From Candidatus Dojkabacteria bacterium (lineage in GTDB: Bacteria; Patescibacteriota; Dojkabacteria; SC72), in the NCBI GenBank assembly GCA_018056375.1, contig JAGPFQ010000002.1, positions 11,344 through 75,343 on the forward strand: DNA of 64,000 nucleotides, written 5' to 3'. How positions within the stretch are numbered: the first letter of the stretch is position 1; each line of letters opens with the position of its first letter. Under the pieces are notes generated by a model, which saw nothing but the letters and a program-made list of their open reading frames with translations, did no database searches and was not told the origin of the DNA. Below are positions 33,663-63,845 of the stretch, in pieces. A program made the translations under genes and the position numbers.

Positions 33663-33706
<44 letters not shown>

Positions 33707-35982: not shown

Positions 35983-35988
35983 AACGGT

Positions 35989-36304: not shown

Positions 36305-36873
36305 CCTAAGGTAGCGTAATACCTTGTCACTTAATTAGTGACTTGCATGAAAGGTGTAACGATTTTTCCTCTGTCTCGACAACGTGCTCGGTGAAATTGA
36401 AATGGCTGTGAAGATGCGGCCTACCTATACCAGGACAAAAAGACCCCGTGGAGCTTTACTTCAGCTTTGCATTGAGATAAGGTCTCGGATGTATAGAATA
36501 TGTGGGAGACTATGAAGCAGTTTCGTCAGGAATTGCGGAGTCGACAGTGTAATACCACTCTTTTGATATTTTATTTCTAACAGTATCCATTATCTGGATT
36601 CTAGACAGTGCATGGTGGGAAGTTTGACTGGGGCGGTTGCTTGCTAAAGAGTACCGCAAGCGCACTAAGGTCTCCTCAACCCGGATGGAAATCGGGTGAA
36701 GAGTGCATAAGCATAAGGAGGCTTTACTGTGAGAGGGACACCTCGATCAGTTACGAAAGTAGGTTTAAGTGACCCTTTGGTTGCGCGTGGAAGCGCCATT
36801 GTTTAACGGAGATAAGCTACCCCGGGGATAACAGGCTAGTCTTGCCCGATAGTTCATATTGACGGCAAGGTTC

Positions 36874-36905
<32 letters not shown>

Positions 36906-36938
36906 ATTGGATAAGATCCCAAGGGTTGGACTGTTCGT

Positions 36939-36969
<31 letters not shown>

Positions 36970-37404
36970 CCGGCGTAAGCCAGGTCGGTCTCTATCCGGT
37001 ATAGGCGTTGTATATTTGAGAGAATCGTCCCCTAGTACGAAAGGATCGGGGAGTGGTAACCTCTGGTCTACCAGCTGTTCTACCAAGAGCATGGCTGGGT
37101 AGCTAAGTTATTATCGGATAAGCACTGAAAGCATATAAGTGCGAAGCCAATCTCAAGATTAAATATACTTGTGTAGCTTGACTACATGGGAGGTCTGTGG
37201 AAGACTACCACATTGATAGGCTCTAAGTGTGAGTATAGTGATATACTTAGCTGAGGAGTACTAATTGACCAAAAGCTTCTTTGATTATCCATTACTTTCT
37301 GTTCGGTTTTGAGTGTACAATGTACACCAATCGCTCTTTAGAATTAAGTCCTGAACTTTTCGTAAGAAGAGGTCAGGCAAGAGGTATTTAAATATAGATT
37401 CCTT

Positions 37405-48000: not shown

Positions 48001-51000
48001 CTGCGATAGGGGCAGTAATTGTTACAGTTGAATTGTTAATGGGTTGGTTACTAAGGATAGTAGGGGCATTGAATACGACTTCTGGAGGGAAAATGGTTTG
48101 CTTTTCAGTAGTATTGCCCACTAAGTCGTAGGCGATAACTGTAATTGTGTGTTGATCTTCTCCTGCGTAAAGTTCAAGAGTTCTTTGTATAACACCAGGT
48201 TTTGTATACTCTATTTCATCAACTTTGTTTAATCCATCACTTCCAACATATTTAATCTCATACTTTAACATTCCTACAGCATCAGTAGCTTCAAATTCAA
48301 TAATTGGTTTATCTATACCATGTGTTAAAGTATCAATACTTGATGTAATAAAGGTTGGGGGAACTTGGTCAACAACATATCCATCTTTGAAGGCAGTAGA
48401 GCTTAACCCAGCATTATCAGTAGCCTTCAAAACTAATCTACCAGAAGTTTTTATACGAATAGTACAATTCATTTCTATATGATTCTCTGGATCGGGTGGA
48501 TCAGCTTCATATGGGAAGGGTGGAGTACATACAATATTATCCGCAGTAGCTATACTGGACTCATCTACTTCTACAGAAGCGATAGAGAAACGATCGCTTA
48601 CTTTAAATGTAGTATCAGTGATAGGGGCATTGGACATAGTAGTTCCTTGATTAATAGTAATTTCTGGAGGTAAATCATCAACATCAAGTACAGTGATAAC
48701 GAAGATTTCTTCGGTATATAAATTAGTTGAGTCGGTGGCTCTTACTCTAATTGTATATTTATTTTTATCATCAGGGTCAGCTGTTCCTGTTGGATTTTCA
48801 TAGTCTGGAGGTTCTAGGAAAGCTAAAGCACCAGTAGTAGGATTAAGAGCAAACTTAGAGTTATCTCCACTTCCTTCACCAGATACAAGAGAGTAGATTA
48901 CTGCACCCTCAGCTTCAGATGTAATAGTGCCTACTTCTGTTTTGTTTTCTTCGATTTCATCAGGAGATAGGCTGAGGTTCTGAGGAGGACATTTCTTACC
49001 AGCATCATTTATAGTCCATTTGCTCGGATCTCCCATTAAAGCTGTTCTTGCATCTTCTGCATAGCAGTAGTTTACTCCTACTGCATCAAAGGTTCGACTT
49101 GGTTTTACAGTTTGTACACTCCATGCATTTAGCAAACTATCATAATTATCTATTTGCATGTTAGAAGCATTTAAGAATTGATTAAAGTATTCAACCTTAC
49201 TAATATTCCAACTAGATATATCTTGATTAAATTGGGCAGCACGATCAAACATACGCGTCATATTTGTAACATTTGCTGTATTCCAACTATCACCAAACGG
49301 TTGATTAAACTGATAAGCATAATTAAACATAGCTGCCATACTTTTAACCTGAGTAGTATTCCAGTTTAAGGGCTTACTCTCATCACCAGGTTCTGCACCA
49401 TTATTAAAAACATTGGCATTTTGAAACATGAATGCCATATTTTCAACCTTTGCTGTATTCCAATCACCAATATATTGATTAAAACTTCTAGCTTGTCTAA
49501 ACATATCTGACATGTTCCTGACATTTGCTGTAGTCCATTTAGGGCCAAACGGTTGATTAAAGTCTCTTGCCACAAACATGGCATACATAGTATCAACCTT
49601 TGATGTATCCCAATTTAATGGATTACTACTACCACCTGCAACATCACCGTTATTAAAAACAGTAGCCCCATTAAACATATGCATCATACTGGTAACTTTT
49701 TTAGTATCCCAGTTATTAAGATTTTGGTTAAAGGAACTAGCACTCATGAACATGCCGAACGTACTAGTTATATTGCTAGTATTCCAAGAACCAATATTTT
49801 GGTTAAATGCTTTAGCGTTTAGAAACATGTATGTTACATACTGGAGACTTTTAGTGTCCCAATTCATGGTGTTGCTACTTTCACCTGGTGCTTCACCGTT
49901 ATTGAAAACGGTTGCACCTTGAAACATGTTAGACATATTAGTAACCACACCAGTATCCCAACCACCAATATATTGATTAAATGCACTAGCATCTCGAAAC
50001 ATAAGAGACATGCTTTCAACCTTTGTTGTAACCCAATTCATAGTATTTTGACTTTCACCTGGTGCATCACCATTATTAAAGGCTGTGGCTTGTCTAAACA
50101 TGTTAGACATATTAGTAACCGCACCAGTATTCCAACTACCGATGTTTTGATTGAAAACTGAGGCCTGATTAAACATTGAGCCCATATTAATAACCTCACT
50201 GGTATTCCACCCACCAATATCCTGATTGAATACAGTAGCTCCGGCAAACATACCGTACATATCTCTTACAAGTCCAGTCTGCCAACCACTAATATCTTGA
50301 TTAAAGGAATAAGCTTTGTTAAACATTTGCTTGAAGTTAAAGGCTTTACTCGTATTCCATTCTAAAGGCTTAGTGCTTTCACCTGGTGCCTCTCCATTAT
50401 TAAAATTGGTAGCTTCGAAGAACATAAGGGACATATTACCAACTTCGCCAGTTTTCCATTTACCGATGTATTGATTAAAATTTGTAGCACCACCAAACAT
50501 TGAGTTCATTGCAGTCACTGCACTTGTATCCCAATTACCTATGGGGGCATTAAAGTTACTGGCTCCACTAAATGTAGCAGCCATATTTTTAACACCACTA
50601 GTATTCCAACTATCCATAGAGTCATTACCAGTAAAGTTTGTAGCTCCTTGAAAAGCAGAAGACATATCTGTAACTTGTGATAAATCAGGGATATCAGTAG
50701 CAGTTAGTTGCATATTAACCATGTCCTTAAAGGCAGACATGAAGCTTGACCATGGGATAGTACCCCATTGTTTAATCTCTAATAGTTTAGCTTTTTCATC
50801 GGTAGCTAAATCAGGGGAATAGAAACGGAGTGGGGCAGTAGATCTAACGCAAACATCGTATGTACCTGGTGTCGGATAATTATGTGTAGCTAAGCTAGTG
50901 TAAAACAGTTCATAATCATCATCACAATTCCAAGATACTTCATAAGTATCGGTAGCTACTTTCAAAAATCTTAAAGTGACTTTATTTGGTTCAGTTGCTC

Positions 51001-51169
51001 CAGTTACATCAGTTTGCCATGTGGTTACAAATAGGTCAGGGGAGTAAGCATGGGTTTTAAAGTTTCTGTTTTTAACTAAAAAGATTGTAAAACCAATAAC
51101 TAATAGAAGGGTAGTTAGGATGAAGAATATTCTCTTTACATGTGGATATTGGACAGAATTTTTAATCAT
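45095..51169 (-). CDS. Giant cell-surface protein 1 (2024 aa). An N-terminal signal anchor is followed by about 19 DUF285-type repeats, a cadherin-like domain, Ig-like (Big) domains including 3 tandem copies, a Pro/Glu-rich linker, a CarboxypepD_reg-like beta-sandwich and a C-terminal TM anchor with a KR tail
   Basis: The ~27-aa unit F..A..FNQ(D/N)IG.WNTS.V..M..MF recurs throughout the N-terminal half. The cadherin-like signature is VITVLDVDDLPP. The C-terminus reads KPIVKPKNPF...IKVYNESGEPLVGVTVEIHSDVRTGITDENGEVYF...WLIALIVLLTILLGYNIYKRKQVEKK. Confidence 0.85.
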   Translation of the reverse strand: MIKNSVQYPHVKRIFFILTTLLLVIGFTIFLVKNRNFKTHAYSPDLFVTTWQTDVTGATEPNKVTLRFLKVATDTYEVSWNCDDDYELFYTSLATHNYPTPGTYDVCVRSTAPLRFYSPDLATDEKAKLLEIKQWGTIPWSSFMSAFKDMVNMQLTATDIPDLSQVTDMSSAFQGATNFTGNDSMDSWNTSGVKNMAATFSGASNFNAPIGNWDTSAVTAMNSMFGGATNFNQYIGKWKTGEVGNMSLMFFEATNFNNGEAPGESTKPLEWNTSKAFNFKQMFNKAYSFNQDISGWQTGLVRDMYGMFAGATVFNQDIGGWNTSEVINMGSMFNQASVFNQNIGSWNTGAVTNMSNMFRQATAFNNGDAPGESQNTMNWVTTKVESMSLMFRDASAFNQYIGGWDTGVVTNMSNMFQGATVFNNGEAPGESSNTMNWDTKSLQYVTYMFLNAKAFNQNIGSWNTSNITSTFGMFMSASSFNQNLNNWDTKKVTSMMHMFNGATVFNNGDVAGGSSNPLNWDTSKVDTMYAMFVARDFNQPFGPKWTTANVRNMSDMFRQARSFNQYIGDWNTAKVENMAFMFQNANVFNNGAEPGDESKPLNWNTTQVKSMAAMFNYAYQFNQPFGDSWNTANVTNMTRMFDRAAQFNQDISSWNISKVEYFNQFLNASNMQIDNYDSLLNAWSVQTVKPSRTFDAVGVNYCYAEDARTALMGDPSKWTINDAGKKCPPQNLSLSPDEIEENKTEVGTITSEAEGAVIYSLVSGEGSGDNSKFALNPTTGALAFLEPPDYENPTGTADPDDKNKYTIRVRATDSTNLYTEEIFVITVLDVDDLPPEITINQGTTMSNAPITDTTFKVSDRFSIASVEVDESSIATADNIVCTPPFPYEADPPDPENHIEMNCTIRIKTSGRLVLKATDNAGLSSTAFKDGYVVDQVPPTFITSSIDTLTHGIDKPIIEFEATDAVGMLKYEIKYVGSDGLNKVDEIEYTKPGVIQRTLELYAGEDQHTITVIAYDLVGNTTEKQTIFPPEVVFNAPTILSNQPINNSTVTITAPIAGHEIDNIAISGTASEGVTLENCADADGEHNAPYTTYVTCNIRNINKSGTIIIQAEDTNNGATGYNSHMYTIDTVDPVITINAPTKKKKDNITDTTITVTDAVEIYPADIEIAASSTGMAENLECTADTGDKNIINCTITIIESGNLAITAKDQAGNSITETKEGYIIDRIPPAISITSTAPINRANRTHYTLGGTCTFGDNNIITVIAEQPYVAECQSDDTWSTELDLSAQPDGTVVVYASQTDDVGNKGEDTKELLKDTIAPVVGYEDLSTNNPSPELTGTVNDKNATVQVVIVETGQIINATNNQNGTWTVSAGDITNLTTKTYNLTITATDTAQNSSEITGQLIIDITPPYITSIVPATGQPNPTNQQPIIFHVTFSEPLKDDTLDANSFKIKEDGVVTTAKVTEVTSINNKKYALSVSGIVNQKASITVFSPAHTYQDVLGNWNTAEIESSTVTFDKEKPTVTVNQADDQVDPTNINSIKYTVVFSKPINGDTFVKEDLLISGSSTATISQLQTVNSTTYTAVVTGMVSGETVSLFLPANRVEDSAGNTNTASTSTDNSVTYDATSPTVTVNQADDQADPTNEDIIKFTIIFSEPINEDTFTRDDLEILGSSTAKVLLLTNVNNTTYTAYVNGMVSGETVSLILPVDTVEDLAGNKNIASTSIDNSITYDNTPPSVTINQSSTQTDPTDINSIKYTVIFSKPIKEDTFTNEDILISGSTTAQVKSITKISETEYEVEIENLTNGETVTATIPADVLTDLAGNTNVASTSTDNSVTYIVEEEEEPEQPEEEEEEPPKPIIPTPLDPKPIVKPKNPFTKYINPIIETEQEEDTKAEEETVDITKEPTPPTQSKSLKIKVYNESGEPLVGVTVEIHSDVRTGITDENGEVYFENLETGLHTMVISYNGYRAEKKINLISDGAEEMEINVKVEKVIIPTYVYWLIALIVLLTILLGYNIYKRKQVEKK
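45650..46610. repeat. Three tandem repeats of about 320 bp inside giant gene 1 (approximate ends). Each encodes a ~106-aa Ig-like unit of the form PTVTVNQADDQ.DPTN...FSxPIxxDTF...GMVSGETVSL.LP...VED.AGN.N.ASTS.DNS.TYD
   Basis: The repeated protein units were read from the translation. Shadow ORFs 45996..46262 and 46317..46595 on the opposite strand mirror the ~321-bp periodicity. Confidence 0.6.
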
Positions 51170-51202: not shown

Positions 51203-54200
51203 TCAGTTTTTATCTTCTTTGTTCTTCTTGTATATGATGTATCCAAAGAGTATTACTAATAGCACAATCAATACTATCCACCAGTAGTTTGTTCTTCTTA
51301 CTTCTTTTAACTCTACATTAACCTCAATCTCTTCTTCTACATTATTAGTTAAATCAATCTCTCTTTCATCTGTATGTCCTTTGTATGAAATGATCATTGT
51401 ATGTTGACCAATATCTACATTCTTAAAGTATGCTTCTCCATTCTTGTCTGTAATCTCTCTTCTAACCTTAGAATGTATTTCAACAGTAGCACCTTTGATA
51501 GGTTTCTTGTCTTTGTCATATACCTTTACTCTTAGATTCTTGTATAGAGAGGGGTAAGTAATCTTCTCTGTTGTCTTAGAGGTTTCCTCTTCAATTTTTT
51601 CTTCTGTTGTAGTCTCTTCTTCCTCCTTAATTATTGGATTAAGGAATTTATTATATGGATTTCTTGGTTTTACAATGGGTTTTGAAATAATTGGTTTGGG
51701 TGGCTCTGGTATTTCTGGTTTTTTCTCTTCTACGAAATACTTAACACTATTATCAGTAGATGTACTGGCCTTGTTACGGTTACTAGCTAGGTCTTCAACC
51801 ATATTAGCTGGTAAGGTAAGTGTTACTGTCTCTCCAGATACCATACCGGTTACAAGTGCTGTATATGTTGTATCATTAACCTTTGTTATTTTAGATACAA
51901 TAGCTGTACTACTTCCTGATATATCTAAAGTTGTTTTACAGAAAGTTTCTTCTTTAATTGGTTCTGAAAATACAACTGTAAATCTGATCTCATCTATATC
52001 AGTAGGGTCAGATTGTCCATCAGCCTGATTTACAGTAACTGTTGGAGCAGTAATATCATATGTAACTGAATTATCTGTACTGGTAGATGCAATATTCTCG
52101 TTTCCTGCTGGGTCTGTACATACCCCTGCGGGTATATCTACTGTGATGGTGTCTCCATCTGTTAAGTTACTTACTTCAAATTCATATTCGGTATCACTGC
52201 CATCAATCTTTGTAAGATTACCTTTTTGGTATGTTGTACTTCCAGTTACAACGATATCATCTGTTGTAAAGGTTGTATCAACAATTGGTTCTGAGAAGGC
52301 GATGATAAATTTGACTGGATTTAGATTGGTTGGATCTGTTTGTCCAATTGCTGAGTTAATGGTAACTGTTGGTGCTATGGTATCTTTCTGTAATGTTGCA
52401 TTTGCTGTTCCTATGTTTCCTACAGCATCTATCTGTTTAGCTTCTACTGCAATATCTCCATCAGGATAGGCAGAGAGGTCTGTGGTTAGTTCCCACACTT
52501 CTCCTTTCATACACATAGTCAAATGTGGTTGTGTTCCTATTGTAACAATTACATCTCCATCACTGGTTGAACATTCTCCTGATAGTGTGTAGCTCGATTG
52601 GTTATTTAAATTAACCTTTACAGGGTCATCATCTATTGTTACTGGTGGAGGTGTCTTATCTACCAGAAAACCATTTTCTTCCTTTTCAAAAGAGTTTCCT
52701 GCCTTATCAGTAGCTTCGATAACTAACTTACCAGAACCTGTGATTGTTAGAGAACAATGTACTATTGATTTGTCATTTTCATCTGTCTCGCAAGTGAAAT
52801 CCTTGTATCCTGCTGTTGTAGAATCTGTCTTTACTTTGACACCACTTGCAAAAAGGTCAACATTATCAGTAACTGTAATTTCGACATTAGTAATATCGTT
52901 GTTACTTTGCTTGATAGGTGGAGAGATGATTATGTCTGGAGCTTCTGTATCATGGAAATATTTTTGCACATTTGTTCCTGTTTGTGTCCATGATTCACCA
53001 TCTGTTTCTATAGCAGTTACTGTAAGCATACCGGTATTTTGAATACCTGTTATTCCACAGGTGAAAGTACCGGCATATGGTAAACTATCACATCCAGTAA
53101 GTGAGGCTCCAACCGCAGCAGGACCTGAAAGATCTATACTTGTAATTAGGTAAGCTGGGTCGGATGTAGTAATTGTTACAGTTGTATCATTGATGGGCGA
53201 TCCGTTACTAATTATATGAGGAGCATTTATTTCCACTACCGGTGGAAATGCAATTCTTCTAGATGTGGAGTTACTAGTTTCTAATGTCTCGCCAGCATTG
53301 TCATATGCCGTAATCTCTATTGTATGAGTTGGTTGACTAGAATCTAAGCTGAGGTCATATGATATGATGTCTGAACTGTATAGATCTTCTGGAATATCAA
53401 TGGTTGTTAAATTCCCCGGTACACCGTAAGTAATTTGATATTTCTGTATTCCCGTAGGGTCTTCTGCTTTAAACTTAACAGTTGGATTATGTATACTACC
53501 TGATGGAGGTATAACAACATTAGCTACTGTAAAGTTTGGACCTTTTGTATCTATGACATATCCGGGTTCTGCAGCTGTAGTAGTGTAACCAGCCTCATCA
53601 GTAGCATAGAGTACTAGAGTACCAGAAGTGGTAATAGTAACAGAACATCTAATAGTTAAGTGATTAGTAGGGTCAGGTTCGTCACATCTGTATGGAAAAT
53701 CAGGAGATGATGTATTTCTTATTCCCTGACATTGAATACTGCCAGATTCAATAGAGGCAACACTTGATGCATGTAATCCTACAGATTCAATTGAAAACCT
53801 ATCACTTACTTCAAATACAGTATCCGTTATATTCCCTTTCTTTGTTTTGGTTCCTGGGATAATTCTAATAACTGGTCCTACATCATCAATATCTTTAACT
53901 TTAATTATGAAAACTTCTTCTGAGTATAGTCCGATATCATCTGTTGCTCTTACTCTAATAGTGTAGAGATTTTTGTCAAGAGGATCATATGAGTCTTGTG
54001 GATCTTCAAAGTCTGGTTCTTCTAGAAATGATAGATGTCCACTATTCAAATCAAGTACAAACTTTGAGTTATCCATATCTCCTTCACCAGGGACAAGAGT
54101 GTAGGTGATGGGGGAATTTTCATCATCAATTGCTGAGATATTTCCTACATCCTTGGTGTGTTCATTAACTTCATCTTCGCCGTCGCCCAACCGTATTGTA

Positions 54201-55540
54201 TGTGGTGGACAGTTTTTACCAGCATCATCAATATCCCATCCAAAATCATTGGCTAATCTGTCTCTGTAAGGTTTGGCAGTACAGTAATGAAGTCCTTGTG
54301 CACCAAGTAGTACATTTGATTGAACAGATTGTGCACTCCATTTTCTTAGTAATTTCTCATAGTTGTCCATTGAGAAAGAGGTATTCTCTAAAAGATTTCT
54401 AAAAGTCTTTACATTACTGATATTCCAATCAGATATGTCCTGATTGAATTGAGTAGCACTCCAGAACATACTGTTCATATCCTTTACACTTACAGTATTA
54501 AAGTGACTTACATCTTGGTTAAATGCATATGCCATCTGGAACATAGCTAACATGGTGGTTACTTTTGATGTGTCCCAGTCGGTTAATGGCTGGTTAAAAC
54601 GATGAGCTCTGTCAAACATTCTTTCCATATTAGTAGCACTCAAAGTTCTCCAACTACCAATTGGTTGATTGAAAGAAGCATTAGATCTAAACATACCGTA
54701 AAAGTCTTCGACATTTTGTACATTCCAATTGAGAGGTGTACCACTAGCTCCAGCAGGGTCTCCGTTGTTAAATCTTGAAGCAAAGAACATATCTCTAACA
54801 GTAGTAACATTGCCTAGGTTCCAATTAGTAAGGTTTTGGTTAAAAGCAGAAGTTTGGAAGAACATCTCAGACATATCGGTTACATTATCTGTTTTCCAGT
54901 TTCCAATTGGACTATTAAATTTAGGTGAACTCTTAAACATACCTTTCATGTTTTGTACATTGATAGTGTTCCATCCATTCATATATTCATTTCCTGTGAA
55001 GTTTGTATTGTTTGCAAAAGCAAAAGACATGTCAGTTACTCTTGATAGGTCAGGTAGGTCAGTGGCTGTTAGTTTTAAGTTAGGCATACCTTGGAAGGCA
55101 TTTTTGAAACTTGACCATTTGATATTTCCCCATTGCTTAATCTCTAGAAGCTTAGCTCTCTCATCGCCAGTGAGGCTAGGTGCATAGAAGGCTATGGGAG
55201 CAAAACTTTTGATACAAATGTTATACGTACCAGGAGTTGTATAGTCATGAGTAATCTTACCATCTACATCTACTAGTTGATCCATATTACCATCACAATT
55301 CCAGTCAACTAGATAGTAACCTGTTGAACCTGTTATTTGAAAGTTTAAGGATACTGTTGAATCAGTTGCCTCTTTTATATTGGTTTGCCATTTGGTTACA
55401 AACAGTTCAGGAGCATAGGCTTGAGTTGTAAATACACCATTTTTAATTAGTAGGGTAGTAAAGAGAGTAACTAGGAGGAAGGTTCCTAGAAGGAAGAGGA
55501 TTCTCTTTGTAGTCTGATGTAGGACAGTTTTTGTATTCAT
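51203..55540 (-). CDS. Giant cell-surface protein 2 (1445 aa), a paralog of protein 1 with the same architecture, fewer DUF285 repeats and 2 tandem Ig-like units
   Basis: The N-terminus MNTKTVLHQTTKRILFLLGTFLLVTLF is a signal anchor. DUF285 repeats and cadherin-like VKDIDDVGP are present. The C-terminal module is about 80 percent identical in protein to that of gene 3, and the 3'-end DNA is nearly identical. Confidence 0.85.
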   Translation of the reverse strand: MNTKTVLHQTTKRILFLLGTFLLVTLFTTLLIKNGVFTTQAYAPELFVTKWQTNIKEATDSTVSLNFQITGSTGYYLVDWNCDGNMDQLVDVDGKITHDYTTPGTYNICIKSFAPIAFYAPSLTGDERAKLLEIKQWGNIKWSSFKNAFQGMPNLKLTATDLPDLSRVTDMSFAFANNTNFTGNEYMNGWNTINVQNMKGMFKSSPKFNSPIGNWKTDNVTDMSEMFFQTSAFNQNLTNWNLGNVTTVRDMFFASRFNNGDPAGASGTPLNWNVQNVEDFYGMFRSNASFNQPIGSWRTLSATNMERMFDRAHRFNQPLTDWDTSKVTTMLAMFQMAYAFNQDVSHFNTVSVKDMNSMFWSATQFNQDISDWNISNVKTFRNLLENTSFSMDNYEKLLRKWSAQSVQSNVLLGAQGLHYCTAKPYRDRLANDFGWDIDDAGKNCPPHTIRLGDGEDEVNEHTKDVGNISAIDDENSPITYTLVPGEGDMDNSKFVLDLNSGHLSFLEEPDFEDPQDSYDPLDKNLYTIRVRATDDIGLYSEEVFIIKVKDIDDVGPVIRIIPGTKTKKGNITDTVFEVSDRFSIESVGLHASSVASIESGSIQCQGIRNTSSPDFPYRCDEPDPTNHLTIRCSVTITTSGTLVLYATDEAGYTTTAAEPGYVIDTKGPNFTVANVVIPPSGSIHNPTVKFKAEDPTGIQKYQITYGVPGNLTTIDIPEDLYSSDIISYDLSLDSSQPTHTIEITAYDNAGETLETSNSTSRRIAFPPVVEINAPHIISNGSPINDTTVTITTSDPAYLITSIDLSGPAAVGASLTGCDSLPYAGTFTCGITGIQNTGMLTVTAIETDGESWTQTGTNVQKYFHDTEAPDIIISPPIKQSNNDITNVEITVTDNVDLFASGVKVKTDSTTAGYKDFTCETDENDKSIVHCSLTITGSGKLVIEATDKAGNSFEKEENGFLVDKTPPPVTIDDDPVKVNLNNQSSYTLSGECSTSDGDVIVTIGTQPHLTMCMKGEVWELTTDLSAYPDGDIAVEAKQIDAVGNIGTANATLQKDTIAPTVTINSAIGQTDPTNLNPVKFIIAFSEPIVDTTFTTDDIVVTGSTTYQKGNLTKIDGSDTEYEFEVSNLTDGDTITVDIPAGVCTDPAGNENIASTSTDNSVTYDITAPTVTVNQADGQSDPTDIDEIRFTVVFSEPIKEETFCKTTLDISGSSTAIVSKITKVNDTTYTALVTGMVSGETVTLTLPANMVEDLASNRNKASTSTDNSVKYFVEEKKPEIPEPPKPIISKPIVKPRNPYNKFLNPIIKEEEETTTEEKIEEETSKTTEKITYPSLYKNLRVKVYDKDKKPIKGATVEIHSKVRREITDKNGEAYFKNVDIGQHTMIISYKGHTDEREIDLTNNVEEEIEVNVELKEVRRTNYWWIVLIVLLVILFGYIIYKKNKEDKN

Positions 55541-55575: not shown

Positions 55576-58491
55576 TTATTTATCTTCTTTCTTTTTGAAT
55601 ATGGCATACCCAATGAGTATTACTAGTATGACAACTATTCCAATTAACCAATAGTTTGGTTTACTTTCTTTTTCTAACTGTACATTAATCTCTATCTCTT
55701 CTCCTTCTTCACTGTCATTAGTTAAATCAATTGTTCTTTCATCCTTCTGTCCTTTGTAGGAGATTATCATGGTGTGTTTACCAACCTCTACATTCTCAAA
55801 GTATGCTTCTCCATTTGCATCTGTAATCTCTGTTCTAATCTTAGAATGTATTTCAACTTTTGCTCCTTTGATAGGTTTCTTGTCTTTGTCATATACCTTT
55901 ACCCTTAGGTCTTTGTAAAGAGTAGGGGTGGTTGATTTATCAATTATTTCAGATGTTTCACTCTTATCTTCTTCTTTCTCTTCTGTAGCATCTGTGGTTT
56001 CTGTCTGTTCCACGACAGGGTTAAGGTATTGAGCTATTAGATTTTTTGGTTTTGTAACAGGCTTTGGATCTGATGGTGTGGGAATGACTGGTTGTGTAGG
56101 TGGAGTAAGAGGTTTTTCTGGTGGAGTGTCTGGTGGTGTTACAGGAGGTGTTGTCTCATCTACATCTAATACATAGATATCAATTGTTTGTGTACTACTT
56201 AAAGATTCAAATCTTGGATTATCAGTTGCTGTAACCTCTACCACATATTTATTTGGAACATCTCCAGCCTGTGTTGGGTTCTCATAGTCTGGGGCAGAAA
56301 CAAAGTATAGTTTGCCCGTTGCTGGTTCAATGGTAAATTTACTTGCATCAGCACCACCTGTTATTGAGTAGGTATGTGTTTGTTTTGGTAATTGAGTATC
56401 TGTAGCAACTATCTGTCCTACATATGCCTCATTCTCATCTACAACAAATTCAGAATGTGTGGTGAATAGTGGAGCGGTGTTGTTTTCTTTACCAATCTCA
56501 AACATAACTTTGGTATCGAAAACTTCTCCAATACTTGTTGTGTAAACATCACTAAAATCAAAATACATTTTGTTGTACTGTGGTGCAGTAGAGGTGAAGT
56601 ATCTTGAATTGCTATTCCATCCCTCCAACACTGTCACATCAGAGAAGAACCCTGTGTCTTTTCCATAGACTACAGCTCTTCCTCCCATCTGATCTCCAAC
56701 ATAGTTTGTTTGAGAATGTGTACCTGCAACATTTTCTTTTACATAGAGAGGAGCTACCATTGAAGTGTCTGTAATCTGCCCTATAGAGTCGGTTCTGTTA
56801 ATTGGTACCATGAATAAATATGAATCTACTAAGTTTTCTACGGTTAACCAAGTTGTTTTCTGTGTTAAGTAGTTGTCTCTGTCAAAATGGAAAGTCCAAT
56901 GTTTTTCTGAAGTAGCAACATTTTCTCCTACATTTGAAAGTCCTTCAGGAGCGAATAGGTTGGAGTCTTGATAGATATCTAATTGTTTTGTTTTTCTAAA
57001 TCCAAACTCTGTGTAGTCAATTTCATGTCCATCTAGTTCGATAGAGAAATCTGTTAATAGTTCATCCCCGTGTGCAGCAGAACCCATAAAGTCTGAAGCA
57101 CCAGATATCCTTATGGCTGTCTCCCAGTTTCCTGATGTTACAATAGTTCTTTTTGTAGCAAAGTTTTCATCAGTTAGATATGTGCGTCCAAGTAACCATG
57201 AGTCTGCATTTGTAGAATCATTTACAATTCTGAAGAAATTGTAAGCTATATACTCAGTTCCATATGGTTTGTAGATTGTAATATCCTTGTCTTGAATGTT
57301 AAGCAACATATAGGAGCTATCTATTTGATTCTTGTATACCTTTGAGGTTGTACAGTTTACACAGTCCAGATCGTTGTTAATATCTGTGCTATATAAAGTA
57401 CCATTTGCCCAGGTATGAATGTTTACATTCTTTACAGAGGCATTAACGAAGGATGCTCCATATGTATTACCAATATTCCTTATGGAAATAGTTTCTATTA
57501 AAGCTGTACTTCCTTGTAGTACATCGTTGATATATAGCTCTACATTTGTTCCATTGATTAAAACCTTATACCTATTATATACAGCCTGATTAACAGGTGT
57601 TGAGGGGGTAAAGCTCATCCATGTTGAACTACTACCACGAATTGCAAATGTAGAAGAATTGTTCCAACCCATTGTCTGATTGCCACCTCCAGTTACTCCG
57701 AACAGACCAAGAGTTCCTTGATATGCAGAATCCATATCATTCCATTTTGCTTCAAACTCTATGTAGTCTCCATCATCTTGTAAGATATATGTTTTATCTA
57801 AAGTTGCATATGCATTGACCCCATTAAATTCAGTTGCTGTTTCTCCACTATCTACACCTAATTCTACTTGTACAATTCTATTTGTAGTTGCTGTATTACC
57901 TCCAGAATCTGTTGCAGTATATGTAATGTGATATCTTCCTGTTCTGTTTGTATCAACTGTTCCTGTTGCTGTGGCAGATAAATTATCATCTACATCATCA
58001 ACAACTGTTGCACCAGGGTCTACAAACTGTTCTCCTAATGGGATATTCATAAATGGATCTCCATTTAGTGTAATAACAGGGGGTTCATCAACAAAGGTTG
58101 TTGTACAGTTATGACAAGTTAGGTCATTGAAAATATTGGAGCTACTTAGAGTACCTAAAGCATCTGTGTGTATAGTGAAGTCTTTAACAGATGCATTTAC
58201 AAACCTAGTACTATATGCATTTGCTATATGTGATACATGAATAGGTTGAGCAAATGCTTTTGTTCCTCTTGTTACATCATCTATGAAGAGTTCAACACTT
58301 GCACCTGAGTTTGTAATTAACACCTTATACTTATGTAGCTCGGCTTGGTTTACACCATTTACAGTGTAGAAAAGCCAGTTACTACCATTATCACGCACAC
58401 CAAAGCTTGTGGCACTATGCCAACCTACAGTGTTTGGGAGAGTTCCACCAACTCCAAAGAGACCTAATGTTCCATTGTATGCAGAGCCCAT
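55576..58491 (-). CDS. Giant cell-surface protein 3 (at least 971 aa). It has two tandem lectin-like (LamG/ConA-like) modules, a large beta-rich domain, a cadherin-like domain and the shared C-terminal linker/CarboxypepD_reg/TM module. The annotated ATG is internal: the in-frame upstream region (to 58701) encodes the missing first module, and the signal-peptide start (ATG at 58709-58707) is out of frame by one base at an A6 tract
   Basis: Upstream in-frame codons read KITPILLAVIAIFTFYSVFETTTTSSIKKEALAGYTITEFNGVNAYAELGDTHILKDEGDYLEFTAKWNDM. These align with the second copy SGETATEFNGVNAYATLDKTYILQDDGDYIEFEAKWNDMDSAYQGTLGLFGV. ATG CTT AAA AAA TAA reads MLKK then stop, and one extra A in the tract would give MLKKITPILLAVIAIF.... 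Confidence 0.8.
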   Translation of the reverse strand: MGSAYNGTLGLFGVGGTLPNTVGWHSATSFGVRDNGSNWLFYTVNGVNQAELHKYKVLITNSGASVELFIDDVTRGTKAFAQPIHVSHIANAYSTRFVNASVKDFTIHTDALGTLSSSNIFNDLTCHNCTTTFVDEPPVITLNGDPFMNIPLGEQFVDPGATVVDDVDDNLSATATGTVDTNRTGRYHITYTATDSGGNTATTNRIVQVELGVDSGETATEFNGVNAYATLDKTYILQDDGDYIEFEAKWNDMDSAYQGTLGLFGVTGGGNQTMGWNNSSTFAIRGSSSTWMSFTPSTPVNQAVYNRYKVLINGTNVELYINDVLQGSTALIETISIRNIGNTYGASFVNASVKNVNIHTWANGTLYSTDINNDLDCVNCTTSKVYKNQIDSSYMLLNIQDKDITIYKPYGTEYIAYNFFRIVNDSTNADSWLLGRTYLTDENFATKRTIVTSGNWETAIRISGASDFMGSAAHGDELLTDFSIELDGHEIDYTEFGFRKTKQLDIYQDSNLFAPEGLSNVGENVATSEKHWTFHFDRDNYLTQKTTWLTVENLVDSYLFMVPINRTDSIGQITDTSMVAPLYVKENVAGTHSQTNYVGDQMGGRAVVYGKDTGFFSDVTVLEGWNSNSRYFTSTAPQYNKMYFDFSDVYTTSIGEVFDTKVMFEIGKENNTAPLFTTHSEFVVDENEAYVGQIVATDTQLPKQTHTYSITGGADASKFTIEPATGKLYFVSAPDYENPTQAGDVPNKYVVEVTATDNPRFESLSSTQTIDIYVLDVDETTPPVTPPDTPPEKPLTPPTQPVIPTPSDPKPVTKPKNLIAQYLNPVVEQTETTDATEEKEEDKSETSEIIDKSTTPTLYKDLRVKVYDKDKKPIKGAKVEIHSKIRTEITDANGEAYFENVEVGKHTMIISYKGQKDERTIDLTNDSEEGEEIEINVQLEKESKPNYWLIGIVVILVILIGYAIFKKKEDK

Positions 58492-58697
58492 ATCATTCCA
58501 TTTAGCTGTAAATTCTAAATAATCACCCTCGTCCTTTAGGATGTGTGTATCTCCTAATTCTGCATATGCATTTACACCATTAAATTCTGTTATGGTGTAT
58601 CCTGCTAGAGCCTCCTTTTTAATTGAGGAGGTGGTTGTTGTTTCAAAAACAGAATAGAAAGTAAATATTGCTATTACAGCAAGTAAAATAGGTGTTA

Positions 58698-58703
58698 TTT
58701 TTT
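58698..58703 (-). repeat. A6 homopolymer (T6 on the plus strand) at the junction between the signal-peptide start codon and the body of giant gene 3. It is a candidate slipped-strand phase-variation site or a homopolymer sequencing error
   Basis: Counted directly on the reverse complement: gttATGcttaaaaaataacacctatt. A6 leaves the ATG out of frame. A7 would fuse MLKK to ITPILLAVIAIFTFYSVF.... Confidence 0.6.
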
Positions 58704-58908
58704 AAGCATAACAGAGCAGTTAAAATTTATCTCTTATACATATTATATTGTAATGAAAATAGTATATTAGTCAAGCTTTTTATGATTGCTAGTTTGAATC
58801 CTTTCCTGTTATTCGGCCTAATTTAAGGAGTTGATTCCTCATTTTAGGCATAATTTATGTAGTTAGAGAAGGTTTGAATCTTTCAGGATTCTGTTCTATT
58901 ATAAACAA

Positions 58909-59856
58909 ATGTTAAAAGTAGAAACAAATAAAAATGTTATATTTCTTACACTCTTAATCAATTTTCTTTACCCTAAGGAAAAAGAACAATTTTATTTATA
59001 TACCAAGATTAAAGAGAAATTTGCCCAACTTATACCACAATCTTTCATAACTAATTTTAAGCATACATATGGCAAAGACAACCAACTATCAATTCTCTAT
59101 AAATACATTTGTTTATCAATATATTTAGACAGTAATTTTGATTTTGACTTCAAAGATGGTGAAGTCTATTCAGATAAATTTTCTAAAGATGTATCTTTTT
59201 TTAAAACACACCTAAAGAAATTGTATAGGAGTATAGATTTTGATTCTTTTTACAGCACAAATATAGAAAAGGAGTATAAGGAGTTATGTAAAAATATAGA
59301 AGAAATTTTTAACAGGAAACCAAATATATTAGATATTCTTTCTAATTATTGGGAATTAAACTATACTCCAGAATTTGTTTTCATTCCAAACTTTGTGGCT
59401 TTAGGAGATTGTTTTGGCTTGAACAGAGGAAGAAAGTTTTTTTCTGTAACATCTCCTAAGGTAAATAAGGTGACTGGTAAATCTGAGTACTATCCTGTTC
59501 ATGTATATTCTAATACTATCCATGAATTATCACATTCGTTTTTTGATGAAAAGATACATGTAAAATATTCTAAAAAGGAATTGATGGACAAGGTGGAGAA
59601 GTTGGGGTTGAATGAGGAGGTTTTGAGAGTGTATGGTTCGGCATATTTTGAAGAATGTTTTGTTCGAGCTGTTACTATGCGATTGAATGAAATTGTAAAT
59701 ATATATGATTTAGATGATAAAGGATTGAAAGAGAAAGTAAAGAACTATCTTTTGAGTAATGATAATTTAGGGTATCCATTGGTTAGGTTTTACTATGAAA
59801 AACTGATGAATAGGGAAGGTGAATCTTTGCAAGCGATTTTTGAATCTGTCTTGTAG
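58909..59856 (+). CDS. Hypothetical protein with an HExxH motif (TIHELSHSF), a putative zinc-dependent metallopeptidase-like protein
   Basis: A single HExxH motif sits in the C-terminal third and the N-terminus is hydrophobic. No family could be assigned. Confidence 0.4.
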   Translation: MLKVETNKNVIFLTLLINFLYPKEKEQFYLYTKIKEKFAQLIPQSFITNFKHTYGKDNQLSILYKYICLSIYLDSNFDFDFKDGEVYSDKFSKDVSFFKTHLKKLYRSIDFDSFYSTNIEKEYKELCKNIEEIFNRKPNILDILSNYWELNYTPEFVFIPNFVALGDCFGLNRGRKFFSVTSPKVNKVTGKSEYYPVHVYSNTIHELSHSFFDEKIHVKYSKKELMDKVEKLGLNEEVLRVYGSAYFEECFVRAVTMRLNEIVNIYDLDDKGLKEKVKNYLLSNDNLGYPLVRFYYEKLMNREGESLQAIFESVL

Positions 59857-59935
59857 TTAATGAGTAAATAACAATTAACTGATAGTAATTGTAAAGTATT
59901 AAGCAATATGCTTTCTTTAATACAGTAAAGCAAAA

Positions 59936-60039: not shown

Positions 60040-61323
60040 ATGGCAGACACAAAAAAGGTTGCAAAAAAAGCAACAGAAAAAATAGATAAAAAAGATCTGT
60101 ATTCACAGATTGATAAGTTCCTCTCAGATGAAAGTAATCAAGTTAAAACCTTTAACAGAGGTGATATTGTTGAAGGAGATGTAGTTGATGTAAGAGAGGG
60201 AATGGTAATCGTTGATATCGGTTATAAATCCGAAGGTATTGTTGCAGGAAGAGAATTAAAGAGTGAGACATTAGATTGGAGAACTCTAAAACCAGGTGAC
60301 AAAGTATTGGTATATGTAGTTAAACCAGAAGATGAGGAAGGTCAGTTAATCCTCTCTATTAGAAGAACACAGCAAGCAAGTACATGGTTGACTCTTGATA
60401 AAGCTAAGAAGGAGAATGATATTGTAGAAACAGTTGTTGTTGAAGCAAATAATGGTGGTTTAATTGTTGAGATTGGTAAAGGTATTAGAGGTTTCATCCC
60501 AACATCACAACTTGATGCATCTAGAGTATATTTAGATGGTGTTAGACAAGTAGGAAAAGATATCTCATCCAAGGTACAGAAGAGATTAAACTCGTTGGTT
60601 GGAGACAAGATCCAGACAAGAATTATTGAATTAGACAGAGAAAAGAACAGAATTATCCTCTCTGAGAAGATGGTTACACAGTCAAGAGATTTGGAGCAGA
60701 GAGAGAAGACTTTGAGTAAAGTTAAGGAAGGTGATGTGTTGGAGGGAACAGTCAGTGGAATTACACCATTTGGTGTCTTTGTTAATGCAGAAGGACTTGA
60801 AGGATTGGTTCACCTCTCAGAACTTTCATGGGATAAGGTGGAGGATATTGGAAGTTTGTACAGTGTTGGTAGCAAGGTTAAGGTCATGGTAATTGGTGTC
60901 TCTGATGGTGGTAAGAGAGTAGCTTACAGTATTAAGAGATTACTTAAAGACCCATGGGCAGAAGCAATTGCTAAATACAAGATTGGGGATATTGTTCAAG
61001 GTAAGGTTCAGAAAGTTGTACCATATGGTGCATTTGTAAGAATAACTGGTGGTCTAAATGGTCTAATCCATATCTCTGAATTGTCAGATAAATTGGTTAA
61101 AGATCCTGCTGATATTGTTAAAGTTGGTCAAGAAGTTGATGTTAAGATTCTTTCCATTTCTTCCACAGAGAGACACTTAGGCTTAAGTCTTAAAGGAGCA
61201 AAGCAAGGTGTTGTTAAGGAAGAGAAAGAAGTCGTTGTTGAGGAGAAACCAGAGGTCACCCAAGAGGAATTAGCAGATGCAGTTGAGACAGCATTAGAAG
61301 AAGAGCTTGGGGAAAAGAAGTAA
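60040..61323 (+). CDS. rpsA: 30S ribosomal protein S1 (four S1 domains). The start is taken at MADTKK; the ORF track begins 28 codons upstream inside the promoter
   Basis: S1/OB motifs are repeated (GDIVEGDVVDV, GDVLEGTVSGITPFGVFV, GDIVQGKVQKVVPYGAFV). Confidence 0.85.
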   Translation: MADTKKVAKKATEKIDKKDLYSQIDKFLSDESNQVKTFNRGDIVEGDVVDVREGMVIVDIGYKSEGIVAGRELKSETLDWRTLKPGDKVLVYVVKPEDEEGQLILSIRRTQQASTWLTLDKAKKENDIVETVVVEANNGGLIVEIGKGIRGFIPTSQLDASRVYLDGVRQVGKDISSKVQKRLNSLVGDKIQTRIIELDREKNRIILSEKMVTQSRDLEQREKTLSKVKEGDVLEGTVSGITPFGVFVNAEGLEGLVHLSELSWDKVEDIGSLYSVGSKVKVMVIGVSDGGKRVAYSIKRLLKDPWAEAIAKYKIGDIVQGKVQKVVPYGAFVRITGGLNGLIHISELSDKLVKDPADIVKVGQEVDVKILSISSTERHLGLSLKGAKQGVVKEEKEVVVEEKPEVTQEELADAVETALEEELGEKK

Positions 61324-61349: not shown

Positions 61350-63845
61350 ATGCTTAATAGAAAAGGAAAAAAAGAGAAGAACAAATTTCTTTCGAGGTTG
61401 AGTAAAAATCTTGTCACCTCGTTAAGGTTAGCATCTTTGATTGCGCTACAAGAGAAGAGGAAGAAAGTTTCACCAAAATTTCTGTTTGTTGGCTTGTTGC
61501 TAAACAGGGCTTCATTAGCCAGTAAAGTGGTAAGTGAAACTAGGATAAGTGAGTCTGATTTGTTAGAGAGTGTAGTGGGTAAAAAAAATATTAGTGTGGA
61601 TATGGATAAAAATGTCCCTATTGTAGTGAACCTTTCTGAGGGCTTAAAAGAGGTGTTAAACAGGGCTTTTTACATAGCTTTGAAATCAGGACATGTGTAT
61701 GTAGGAACTGAGCATGCTATGCTAGCTCTCCTTGAAGGTAACTTTAGAGAATTTGAAGGTGTTAAGGAATTGGGTTTAACATTGGAAACATTCCGTAATG
61801 TATTAAGTCAGGTTGCGATATATCCAATTGGTATGTTTTCTAAACCATCGGATCCATTTTTTAGTGAAGAAGGTCAAGGATTGATGGAGTTTTTAGGTGT
61901 TGATTTGGTTGAATTAGCAAGGGAGAAGAAGCTAGATCCGGTAATTGGGAGAGATAAAGAGTTAAAACAACTTGCAAATATTTTGGGAAGAAGGAAGAAG
62001 AATAATCCAATTATAGTAGGAGAGGCTGGTGTGGGAAAAACAGTATTAGTAGAAGGTTTAGCACAGATGATAGCAGATGGACATGTTGGTCCATCTTTAA
62101 AGGGTACTAAGATAGTATCTATAAACATTTCTGACATTATGGCTGGTAGCAAGATGAGGGGTGATGTTGAAGAGAAGGTTATGGCTATAATAGATGAAGT
62201 AGTTAAATCAGAAGATACTATTCTTTTTATCGATGAGATCCATCAAATTGTTGCTCCAGGTATGCCAGGTAGCTCCGCAGATATCGCTTCGGTATTAAAA
62301 CCTGCTTTAACAACAGGTAATTTTAGATGTATTGGTGCTACTACAGTACAAGATTACAATGCATATTTTGAAACCGATAGTGCTCTAAGTAGAAGGTTTC
62401 AACCACTATTTTTAGATGAATTAAGTGTTGATGCTACTGTAGAAGTTCTTAAAAGGATTAGACCATTACTCCAAAAATATCATAATGTGAAGATTGCTGA
62501 TGAGGCATTAAATGTAGCTGCAAATCTTACTGATAGGTATGTAGTTGATAGGTATTTACCAGACAAGGCAATTGATGTATTAGATGAGGCTGCTGCTTCT
62601 AGAAAGTTAGGTTTAGAAGATGTTTTCAAGGATATTGATATATTGAAGGAAGAACTACAAGATATTAATTCTCAAAAAGATAAGAGTATAGAAGAGTGGA
62701 ATATGGAAGATGCTCTTCAAAAAGATAAAGCAAGTAAGGAGCTACAAAACATAATCTCCCTAAAGGAAAAGGAGTATCTCTCTTTTATGAAAGATAAAAC
62801 AAATGAGATTACTGGGGAGGATATCCGACAAGTTATTTCAAAATGGACAGGAATACCACTTAATACTCTTGGCAGTAAAGAGAAAAATGCTCTACTTTTG
62901 TTAGATAAAGAGCTTAAGAAGAAGGTAATAGGGCAGGATGAAGCTTGTGAGAATGTTGCAAATGCTGTTAAGAGAGCAAGGACAGGCATTATTGATACTG
63001 ATAGACCTTGGGCATCGTTCCTCTTTTTGGGTCCCACTGGTGTTGGTAAGACAGAATTAGCAAAAGTTTTAGCAGGTGAATTGTTTGGAGATCGAGATAG
63101 GTTGATACAGATAGATATGAGTGAAATGATGGAAATGCATAGTGTGTCTAAATTGATTGGTTCTCCTCCAGGATATGTTGGTTTTCAACAAGGTGGCCGT
63201 TTAACAGAAGAGGTTAAGAGGTATCCACATTCAGTAATTCTTTTTGATGAGATAGAGAAAGCACATCCGGAGGTTTTAAATGTTCTCTTGCAAATATTGG
63301 AATATGGACATTTGACAGATGGAAAAGGAAAGAGAGTCAACTTTAAGAATAGTGTAATAATACTAACCTCTAATATTGGTGCTGAAGAGATAGCTAAAAG
63401 TAAGGTGCTTGGTTTTAATCAAAAACACACATCAGAAGAGAAGAGCGACAGGGAGATTGATGATGCATATAGTAGTATGAAGGATCAGTTGATGGAAGCA
63501 TTGCAGGATACTCTAAGACCTGAATTATTAAACAGACTTGATGATATTGTAATATTTAGAGCATTGACTAGAAAAGATGCTAGAAAGATTGTGATGTTGT
63601 TAGTTGAAGAGTTAAACAGTAGGCTTGTAGAGGAGAAGATAGTTGTAAAGCTGGATAGTAAAGCTCTGACATATATAGTAAAGAATGCATTTAGCGAAAG
63701 GTATGGAGCAAGACCTCTTAGAAGATTTATTCAAGAAAAAATAGAGAACTTACTTGCTAATCATATTCTTACTGAAGGTGAAAACAAGGAGAAAGAGATA
63801 CTAACTGTCACTAGAGAAGGAGATGAGTTAGTTATCAAGAAATAA
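61350..63845 (+). CDS. clpC: ATP-dependent Clp protease ATP-binding subunit ClpC-like (two AAA+ modules, Clp_N repeats, short middle domain)
   Basis: Walker A1 is GEAGVGKT and Walker A2 is GPTGVGKTELAK. The sensor and ClpB_D2-small C-terminus are present. At 831 aa with a short M-domain it fits ClpC rather than ClpB. Confidence 0.88.
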   Translation: MLNRKGKKEKNKFLSRLSKNLVTSLRLASLIALQEKRKKVSPKFLFVGLLLNRASLASKVVSETRISESDLLESVVGKKNISVDMDKNVPIVVNLSEGLKEVLNRAFYIALKSGHVYVGTEHAMLALLEGNFREFEGVKELGLTLETFRNVLSQVAIYPIGMFSKPSDPFFSEEGQGLMEFLGVDLVELAREKKLDPVIGRDKELKQLANILGRRKKNNPIIVGEAGVGKTVLVEGLAQMIADGHVGPSLKGTKIVSINISDIMAGSKMRGDVEEKVMAIIDEVVKSEDTILFIDEIHQIVAPGMPGSSADIASVLKPALTTGNFRCIGATTVQDYNAYFETDSALSRRFQPLFLDELSVDATVEVLKRIRPLLQKYHNVKIADEALNVAANLTDRYVVDRYLPDKAIDVLDEAAASRKLGLEDVFKDIDILKEELQDINSQKDKSIEEWNMEDALQKDKASKELQNIISLKEKEYLSFMKDKTNEITGEDIRQVISKWTGIPLNTLGSKEKNALLLLDKELKKKVIGQDEACENVANAVKRARTGIIDTDRPWASFLFLGPTGVGKTELAKVLAGELFGDRDRLIQIDMSEMMEMHSVSKLIGSPPGYVGFQQGGRLTEEVKRYPHSVILFDEIEKAHPEVLNVLLQILEYGHLTDGKGKRVNFKNSVIILTSNIGAEEIAKSKVLGFNQKHTSEEKSDREIDDAYSSMKDQLMEALQDTLRPELLNRLDDIVIFRALTRKDARKIVMLLVEELNSRLVEEKIVVKLDSKALTYIVKNAFSERYGARPLRRFIQEKIENLLANHILTEGENKEKEILTVTREGDELVIKK

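Follow-up and report, generated by a model that had tools for sequence, protein, structure and literature searches.

The question raised by this locus is whether a giant surface-protein gene whose start codon is out of frame by a single base has been misread, switched off reversibly or inherited as a null allele. The gene, here called gene 3, lies on the minus strand of a 64-kb stretch of chromosomal DNA (the window) from Candidatus Dojkabacteria bacterium, of the Patescibacteria or Candidate Phyla Radiation (CPR). The window encodes a bacterial ribosomal RNA (rRNA) operon together with DnaK, FtsK, DnaG, MurJ and ClpB, the GC content of the genome is 36 %, and the two genome hits were metagenome-assembled genomes of Dojkabacteria. 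Comparison with relatives indicates that gene 3 carries six A residues (A6) close to its start codon where seven (A7) were ancestral. We consider it the best explanation, with a probability of roughly 0.6, that this is a genuine heritable A7-to-A6 deletion, a recurrent null allele of the type known from inlA of Listeria monocytogenes, slowly reversible in principle and stably inherited, and not a rapidly flipping contingency locus.

The displaced start of gene 3

The deposited call for gene 3 opens at ATG 58491, which the original prediction had taken to be internal, placing the true start at ATG 58709 and the break in the frame at the A-tract just behind it. The letters agree exactly, as the minus strand around the start reads ...ctgctctgtt ATG CTT AAA AAA TAA cac cta... 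and the tract begins at nucleotide 7 of the coding sequence. In the intact gene of ~3.1 kb, codons 3–5 across the A7 run specify Lys-Lys-Ile. Downstream of the TAA at 58704–58702 the main frame of the window reads AAA ATA ACA CCT ATT TTA (KITPILLAVIAIFTFYSVFETTTT / KITPILLAVIAIFTFYSVFETTTTSSIKKEALAGYTITEFNG) and stays open past ATG 58491 to the stop at 55576. The 70 codons between that TAA and 58491 contain no ATG, GTG or TTG in the main frame, as had also been claimed, and the open reading frame (ORF) listing accordingly opens at 58491; one of the peptides encoded 5' of Met74 in gene 3 is EALAGYTITEFNGVNAYAELGDTHILK. The elements concerned are as follows.

58747–58774, minus strand: sigma-70-like promoter, TTGACT-16 nt-TACAAT, 10/12 matches, ~38 nucleotides 5' of ATG 58709
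58695–58709, minus strand: mini-ORF of 4 codons, MLKK and a stop (ATG CTT AAA AAA TAA; ATG 58709–58707, stop TAA 58697–58695), the stranded true start of gene 3
58698–58703, minus strand: A6 homopolymer (T6 on the plus strand), which is the A7 of relatives minus one base
58702–58704, minus strand: TAA that closes the main frame of gene 3 on its 5' side in the A6 allele, read from the sequence
58645–58698, minus strand: hydrophobic core ITPILLAVIAIFTFYSVF of a putative signal peptide or signal anchor, maximum Kyte-Doolittle(15) 2.58
58492–58701, minus strand: 70 orphaned N-terminal codons, covering what is left of the signal/anchor segment, a linker and residues 1–34 of module 1, identified by substitution rates and by alignment to module 2 and to the intact homologue P0001
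55576–58491, minus strand: annotated truncated ORF of 971 residues (MBP8979530.1), with the rest of module 1, a DUF5011 Ig-like domain, module 2, a central region, a cadherin domain, CarboxypepD_reg and a C-terminal transmembrane (TM) helix

The complete protein would therefore run in the order signal/anchor segment, module 1, DUF5011 Ig-like domain, module 2, central region, cadherin, CarboxypepD_reg and C-terminal TM helix. It holds two copies of an internal module of ~165 residues, and its N-terminal region aligned with its own module 2 at 55 % identity (E = 2e-63), the alignment opening 40 residues before the called Met. Against four orthologues the ratio of nonsynonymous to synonymous substitution rates (dN/dS) was 0.08–0.13 in the 70 upstream codons, compared with 0.15–0.25 in the rest of the gene. 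Because they align with module 2 and show this low dN/dS, the 70 codons are judged to be coding and under purifying selection, which bears out the view that ATG 58491 is internal and lies inside module 1. They also align to P0001, an intact homologue from another organism that starts MKKRYLSYKKTVSVILAVVGFFVLCFLL and continues ALTEFNGVDAYAELGD; the distant homologue, in a GC-richer organism, reads GTG AAG AAG and lacks the A-tract. The search with the 286-residue N-terminus returned mostly matches to DUF5011 Ig domains, and P0001 was the only true homologue.

Insertion of one A in silico converted every A6 allele into an open ORF of 1038–1044 codons. The restored N-terminus is Lys-rich and hydrophobic and joins the rest of gene 3, as had been foreseen, and its maximum Kyte-Doolittle(15) of 2.58 is close to that of the two giant genes that follow it (2.65 for gene 1, 2.49 for gene 2) and to those of the orthologues, while the product from ATG 58491 reaches 0.94 and has no hydrophobic N-terminal segment. 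The deposited 971-residue MBP8979530.1 and its 965- and 969-residue relatives are gene-calling artefacts on a frameshifted allele whose real start is at 58709.

The modules themselves, which had been described as lectin-like, matched Laminin_G_3 only below the curated cut-off (E = 6.9e-4), with 2 of 7 module copies matching and a best E of 1.7e-4. A PDB sequence search with the module gave no match, and an AlphaFold model of module 1 was unusable (pLDDT 33).

Tract length and ancestry among relatives

Comparison of the orthologous site in relatives had been proposed as one of the checks and was carried out here. An exact look-up of the 971-residue call in the gene-position index gave no locus, and the neighbouring 315-residue protein was used as the anchor instead. 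This returned ten loci from different samples and assemblers, 95.4–99.4 % identical to the window over 9 kb, and 10/10 had A6. Additional look-ups brought in L023 and L027 (group A) and L014, L022 and L025 (group B), again with A6. The group A loci found through this exact-protein look-up represent one haplotype, selected by the anchor; they are independent assemblies, not independent events, and their identity was rejected as a sign of evolutionary conservation of A6. Scans of metagenome contigs with protein patterns, and with a DNA pattern tolerant of tract length, gave no match. The alleles fall into the following groups.

Group A (window, L001–L010, L023, L027): A6, out of frame
Group A' (L012/L021): A7, intact, 1036 residues
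Group B (L014, L022, L025): A6, out of frame
Group B (L013): A7, TGG-to-TGA nonsense at codon 96
Group C (L015–L020): A7, intact, 1034 residues

The original prediction named a homopolymer assembly error, with a genome that is truly A7 and an intact gene, as the main alternative. A missing single base inside a homopolymer is what such an error would look like, and among the related assemblies L023 is visibly prone to error, many of its genes being split. This reading is nonetheless effectively refuted, because A6 occurs in 16 assemblies from differing samples and assemblers and from at least 8 projects (Logan, ENA, JGI, NCBI), and because the control tracts in the surveyed genomes are invariant in length (ClpB A7 at 61367–61373 and A8 at 61581–61588, S1 A7 at 60063–60069). 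The pipelines in question also give A7 for relatives, and over ~8.6 kb of comparison with L012/L013 the window shows no uncompensated difference that breaks the frame apart from the tract indel.

L023 (GCA_040776405.1) has the 315-residue gene split into 153 + 151 residues, gene 3 into 556 + 408 residues, and ClpB split as well; it also carries A6 and is unsuited to frameshift inference.

The relatives with A7 indicate the direction of the change. L012, with 93.5 % identity to the window over this locus, reads ATG CTT AAA AAA ATA ACA and has an uninterrupted ORF of 1036 codons (HHX99652.1). The more distant L015–L020, six contigs from six samples with 77 % protein identity, read ATG TTC AAA AAA ATA GCA and encode an intact protein of 1034 residues. 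The additional A that was predicted to restore the gene is thus present in L012, L013 and L015–L020, and in L012/L021 and L015–L020 it stands in an intact gene. Judged from these orthologues, the ancestral state of the tract is evidently A7 and A6 is derived through the loss of one base.

A6 is found on two haplotype backgrounds. Groups A and B differ at ~10 % of sites in the first 220 nucleotides and by a 3-nucleotide indel, and the differences closest to the tract on either side are at -18 and +57, counted from the ATG; a single origin of A6 would require a recombination patch of less than ~75 nucleotides. Since A6 occurs on both backgrounds and L013, of B-type sequence, has A7, it is more parsimonious to suppose that A6 arose at least twice by independent slippage, and that the tract is a slippage hotspot. 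A further lesion was found in L013 (locus ~4286–4288) and in the independent JGI contig L024 (~124–126), where TGG is changed to TGA at codon 96 of gene 3. Together these alleles indicate recurrent inactivation of gene 3, twice by A7-to-A6 and once by a separate nonsense mutation. A reading of this TGA as a sense codon (code 4 or 25) was rejected: TGA ends 7 of the 35 window ORFs and also the L015 orthologue.

The A6 allele of group A lies within a block of almost no diversity.

~56700–59900, strand not assigned: zero-diversity haplotype block with A6, ~3.2 kb, reaching from the 5' 2 kb of gene 3 across its promoter to the 315-residue orphan gene, which it includes

Among 11 group A strains the block contains 1–2 variable columns, compared with ~5 % variable columns on both flanks. 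L001 and L008 are 100 % identical to the window within the block and 94.5–96.4 % identical in the adjacent S1 and ClpB genes, where their distance from the window equals that of the A7 genome L012. L001 and L008 being as distant as L012 in the flanks, the A6/A7 difference amounts to a polymorphism inside a single species complex. An exact-protein look-up alone cannot create zero synonymous diversity over 3.2 kb beside genes that are 5 % divergent, and the pattern looks like recent recombination of the A6 block into diverged backgrounds, through recombinational spread or a gene-specific sweep. The three group B A6 alleles are identical in their first 600 nucleotides, and their other differences are clustered (27 in one 200-nucleotide bin and none in many). 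Both A6 alleles thus appear to be young. They carry no second lesion and show a dN/dS of 0.14–0.19; as the alleles are too young for decay, the absence of secondary lesions and the dN/dS of 0.14 are uninformative on selection after the frameshift. A reading of the dN/dS of 0.14 as continuing selection on the OFF alleles was rejected, the differences being clustered recombination blocks.

Readings of the A6 allele

The favoured reading, a recurrent null allele, would work as follows. Slipped-strand mispairing at the tract would have shortened A7 to A6 on two or more occasions, in separate haplotypes, and homologous recombination would have carried the young A6 allele into diverged strains. Transcription from the promoter at 58774–58747 presumably continues. 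Ribosomes that start at ATG 58709 would terminate after four codons, as read directly from the letters, and the body of 1040 codons would be left with neither a canonical start nor an export signal, such that the protein is probably not made or not exported. The untranslated leader of 3.1 kb might conceivably also lower expression of genes 2 and 1 through polarity. Reversion would be possible but rare (in the region of 1e-7 per generation in Listeria), and the null allele may be favoured by selection.

The closest known system is inlA of L. monocytogenes, in which A7 changes to A6 with a stop after 8 residues and at least 2 origins (Orsi, Bowen & Wiedmann 2010; PMC2831843). As in gene 3, the A7 follows the start codon within a few nucleotides and falls in the Lys-rich signal-peptide start of a large surface protein in a single-membrane bacterium, the loss of one A leaves a short peptide (8 residues in inlA, 4 in gene 3), and A6, which arose at least twice, is inherited by lineage, with A7 and A6 occurring in closely related sequences. 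Both hallmarks are found at gene 3: the deletion just 3' of the start codon ends translation at MLKK, and A6 appears on two backgrounds, within each of which the state and the zero-diversity block are common to the members. The proteins differ, inlA having leucine-rich repeats and LPXTG whereas gene 3 has DUF5011 Ig-like, cadherin and CarboxypepD_reg domains and a C-terminal TM helix; the host of gene 3 is an uncultivated CPR bacterium, and the OFF allele of gene 3 lies on a block recombined into diverged strains.

The rates reported for inlA are 5.5e-7 for A6 to A7 and about 3.9e-8 for A7 to A6 (PMC2831843), and a 7-nucleotide tract in mycobacteria changes at 3e-8 per generation (PMC10334774). 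Such rates are 100–1000 times the point-mutation rate and far below those of classical contingency loci. In Mycobacterium tuberculosis, glpK 7C and other 7-nucleotide frameshifts resemble gene 3 as homoplastic indels recognized by comparative genomics and as a slow switch (~3e-8), but they were drawn from 31,428 genomes with dozens to hundreds of events and reversions, against at least 2 events, ~25 assemblies and no reversion for gene 3 (PMC10334774). According to the passages of the inlA paper that mention them (PMC2831843), p78 of Mycoplasma fermentans (5' A7 to A6) and swrA of Bacillus subtilis (poly(A) at nucleotides 20–27) are likewise turned on and off by a one-base change in a 5' poly(A) run; in those two cases reversibility and phenotype were shown in culture.

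Three other readings accept that the deletion is real. Classical phase variation, in which the tract flips between A6 and A7 at high frequency and populations mix ON and OFF cells as bet-hedging (e.g. for evasion of phage or host defence), was the form in which the locus was originally proposed. It accounts for a tract near the 5' end of a surface-protein reading frame where a change of one base either way toggles the frame, for A6 and A7 among close relatives with at least 2 independent changes, and for OFF alleles that carry no second lesion; 7-nucleotide tracts are known to switch (PMC2831843, PMC10334774), and some CPR lineages are without MutS/MutL (PMC8406219), which would raise slippage. 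On that last point, none of the large ORFs of the window is a mismatch-repair gene, a result for the window only that has no bearing on the whole genome. The state of the tract is however fixed per haplotype, with A6 in 13/13 of group A and in 3/3 of group B with G at -18 and A7 throughout A' and C, and only A6 and A7 were seen, with no A5 or A8. ON versions of the eight A6 alleles were sought in a collection of 15 billion proteins and 0/8 were found, a weak negative given limited sampling, and the window-haplotype members of the 90 % protein cluster are all internal-ATG calls of 965, 969, 971 or 1285 residues or fragments. The non-reversible nonsense codon that inactivates gene 3 in L013/L024 also speaks against a switch, A6/A7 rates elsewhere are 1e-7 to 1e-8, far below the classical loci, and alleles this young would not be expected to have gained a second lesion. 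Furthermore, A7 and A8 are ordinary here: ten A/T runs of at least 7 lie in coding sequence within the 64 kb, and housekeeping genes have them too, ClpB with A7 at +17 and A8 at +231 and S1 with A7 at +107. Because such tracts are unremarkable and occur near the 5' ends of essential genes, the gene 3 tract is a by-product of AAA-coded lysines in an AT-rich genome and not a specialised contingency repeat. Classical contingency tracts, as in Neisseria, Haemophilus, Campylobacter and Helicobacter, are G/C runs of at least 8 or multi-copy tetranucleotides that are enriched in surface genes, heterogeneous within cultures and switch at 1e-2 to 1e-5. Gene 3 shares with them an ON/OFF state of a surface structure set by slipped-strand mispairing in a coding repeat, and neither a long G/C or tetranucleotide tract nor surface-gene enrichment was found for it. 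We therefore regard rapid phase variation as unlikely; what stands of the proposed slippage switch is that tract length is polymorphic among relatives and that A6 probably arose at least twice, and what does not is rapid reversible switching.

Expression of the A6 allele by recoding, through a -1 slip of tRNA-Lys on A AAA AA beside UAA, RNA-polymerase slippage or reinitiation at the overlapping AUA, would give a low level of full-length protein. IS1 A6C and dnaX A AAA AAG are A-run slippage sites, and A6 runs in IS1 support ~1 % frameshifting. With its A6 run directly ahead of a stop, gene 3 offers a plausible slippery site of this kind: a -1 shift from AAA (58700–58698) to AAA (58701–58699) re-pairs perfectly, the next codon, AUA, continues gene 3, and slippage is promoted when a stop codon occupies the A site. 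In Buchnera, genes with frameshifts are rescued by transcriptional slippage on poly(A) runs, as the inlA paper discusses (PMC2831843). Against this, the shifted arrangement is not conserved, orthologues being plainly in frame with A7; the fold of 58745–58600 has a minimum-free-energy z of -1.35, with a weak A-U hairpin only and no stable stem 5–9 nucleotides from the tract; no Shine-Dalgarno-like stimulator lies upstream, and A6 is short for transcriptional slippage. Lacking both the conservation and the stimulatory element of programmed frameshift sites, gene 3 is very unlikely to be expressed in this way. It is more improbable again that this lineage has as its functional protein the 971-residue product from ATG 58491, or one begun at a non-canonical AUA/AUU codon directly behind the tract. 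Gene callers pick ATG 58491 in every assembly, and with genes here generally lacking a Shine-Dalgarno sequence its absence is no argument against that codon. But ATG 58491 lies 34 residues into a repeat of ~165 residues that module 2 and every orthologue keep whole, the codons upstream of it are under purifying selection, and an Ig-like/cadherin protein with a C-terminal anchor and a hydrophobicity maximum of 0.94, in place of 2.5–2.6, could hardly be exported.

The recurrent null allele accordingly remains our preferred reading, and several points weigh against it or limit its reach. The sequences compared are consensus only, such that a minority A7 subpopulation may exist within samples; the loss of gene 3 expression is predicted from the DNA; and ribosomes or RNA polymerase slipping on the A-run might rescue a low level of expression. 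The zero-diversity block makes the missing secondary decay silent on age-independent selection, and the group A loci, which share ancestry at the block, stand for a single event in evolution. Selection on the null allele, selection on the linked 315-residue gene, or drift could have spread the A6 block. We entertain only tentatively the idea that OFF is adaptive, that is, that loss of a surface protein (a candidate host attachment factor or phage receptor of an episymbiotic CPR bacterium) was selected repeatedly, that the A6 block swept through diverged Dojkabacteria in many bioreactor or environmental samples, and that the tract leaves a way of returning to ON.

As a mechanism, slippage in an A7 run at the 5' end is well known, and the added interest of this locus lies in the recurrent inactivation and in a null allele spread by recombination. 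CPR bacteria are thought to depend on surface proteins for host attachment, and very little has been reported on how they vary them. Here one species complex holds intact, frameshifted and nonsense alleles of one giant surface protein, with the frameshifted allele apparently spreading by recombination, and gain or loss of the gene 3 protein would be a tractable population-genetic marker in public metagenomes. A full-text literature search for phase variation in the CPR found no report of homopolymer switching in this group, the nearest match being a hypervariable repeat in a Gracilibacteria surface protein. If the adaptive OFF allele were real, the CPR would gain its first documented case of a contingency-like surface-antigen switch and of a gene-specific sweep.

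The giant-gene cluster and other features of the window

Two further giant genes follow gene 3 on the same strand.

51203–55540, minus strand: gene 2, DUF285 surface protein, 1445 residues, 35 nucleotides 3' of gene 3, probably co-transcribed with it
45095–51169, minus strand: gene 1, DUF285 surface protein, 2024 residues, 33 nucleotides 3' of gene 2, probably in one transcription unit with genes 3 and 2

Neither the gap of 35 nor that of 33 nucleotides between genes 3, 2 and 1 contains a promoter-like or terminator-like site, and TTGACT-16-TACAAT at 58774–58747 is the sole intergenic promoter match at the cluster. Both of its hexamers are kept in all orthologues, including the L015 group at 77 % identity, and the order gene 3–gene 2 is kept in L015. 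Because the genes stand head to tail with short gaps that hold no promoter or terminator, and share a single intergenic promoter, genes 3-2-1 are likely to form a three-gene operon.

The 5' part of gene 2 (54100–55540) is hypervariable, with ~81–83 % identity and partial alignments to L001/L004/L008 and 99.4 % identity to L022, and the cluster of giant genes looks like a patchwork of haplotypes that recombine. In L003 and L009 an in-frame gene 3/gene 2 chimera was found (window 56109 joined to 52651; 1285 residues from an internal ATG; P0243, P0249, P0251), made by a deletion of ~3.4 kb between the paralogous C-terminal parts; the chimera strains are also A6.

Upstream of gene 3 (58777–59930), synteny with L013/L022 ends exactly at the -35 box of the promoter. 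The 315-residue orphan gene (58909–59856), which matches no Pfam family and is transcribed divergently from gene 3, is absent in L013 (3853–3933), and in L022 (338–1312) an IS30-like transposase (HTH_38 + rve) replaces it.

Shine-Dalgarno sequences are almost absent from the ~35 ORF start regions of the window, and several ORFs have a TATAAT-like box within ~10 nucleotides of the ATG (e.g. ClpB at 61350), an arrangement that points to mRNAs with no leader or a very short one.

Elsewhere in the window, the 23S rRNA gene (33062–37284) is 4223 nucleotides long against 2925 in the bacterial model, ~1.3 kb longer, and contains a group I intron (Rfam RF00028, 78.8 bits, 36002–36230) with a LAGLIDADG homing-endonuclease ORF at 35387–35884 (PF00961, E = 3e-20). 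An ORF of 437 residues at 40468–41781 has a Cas_csx3 domain at its C-terminus (E = 1.5e-12).

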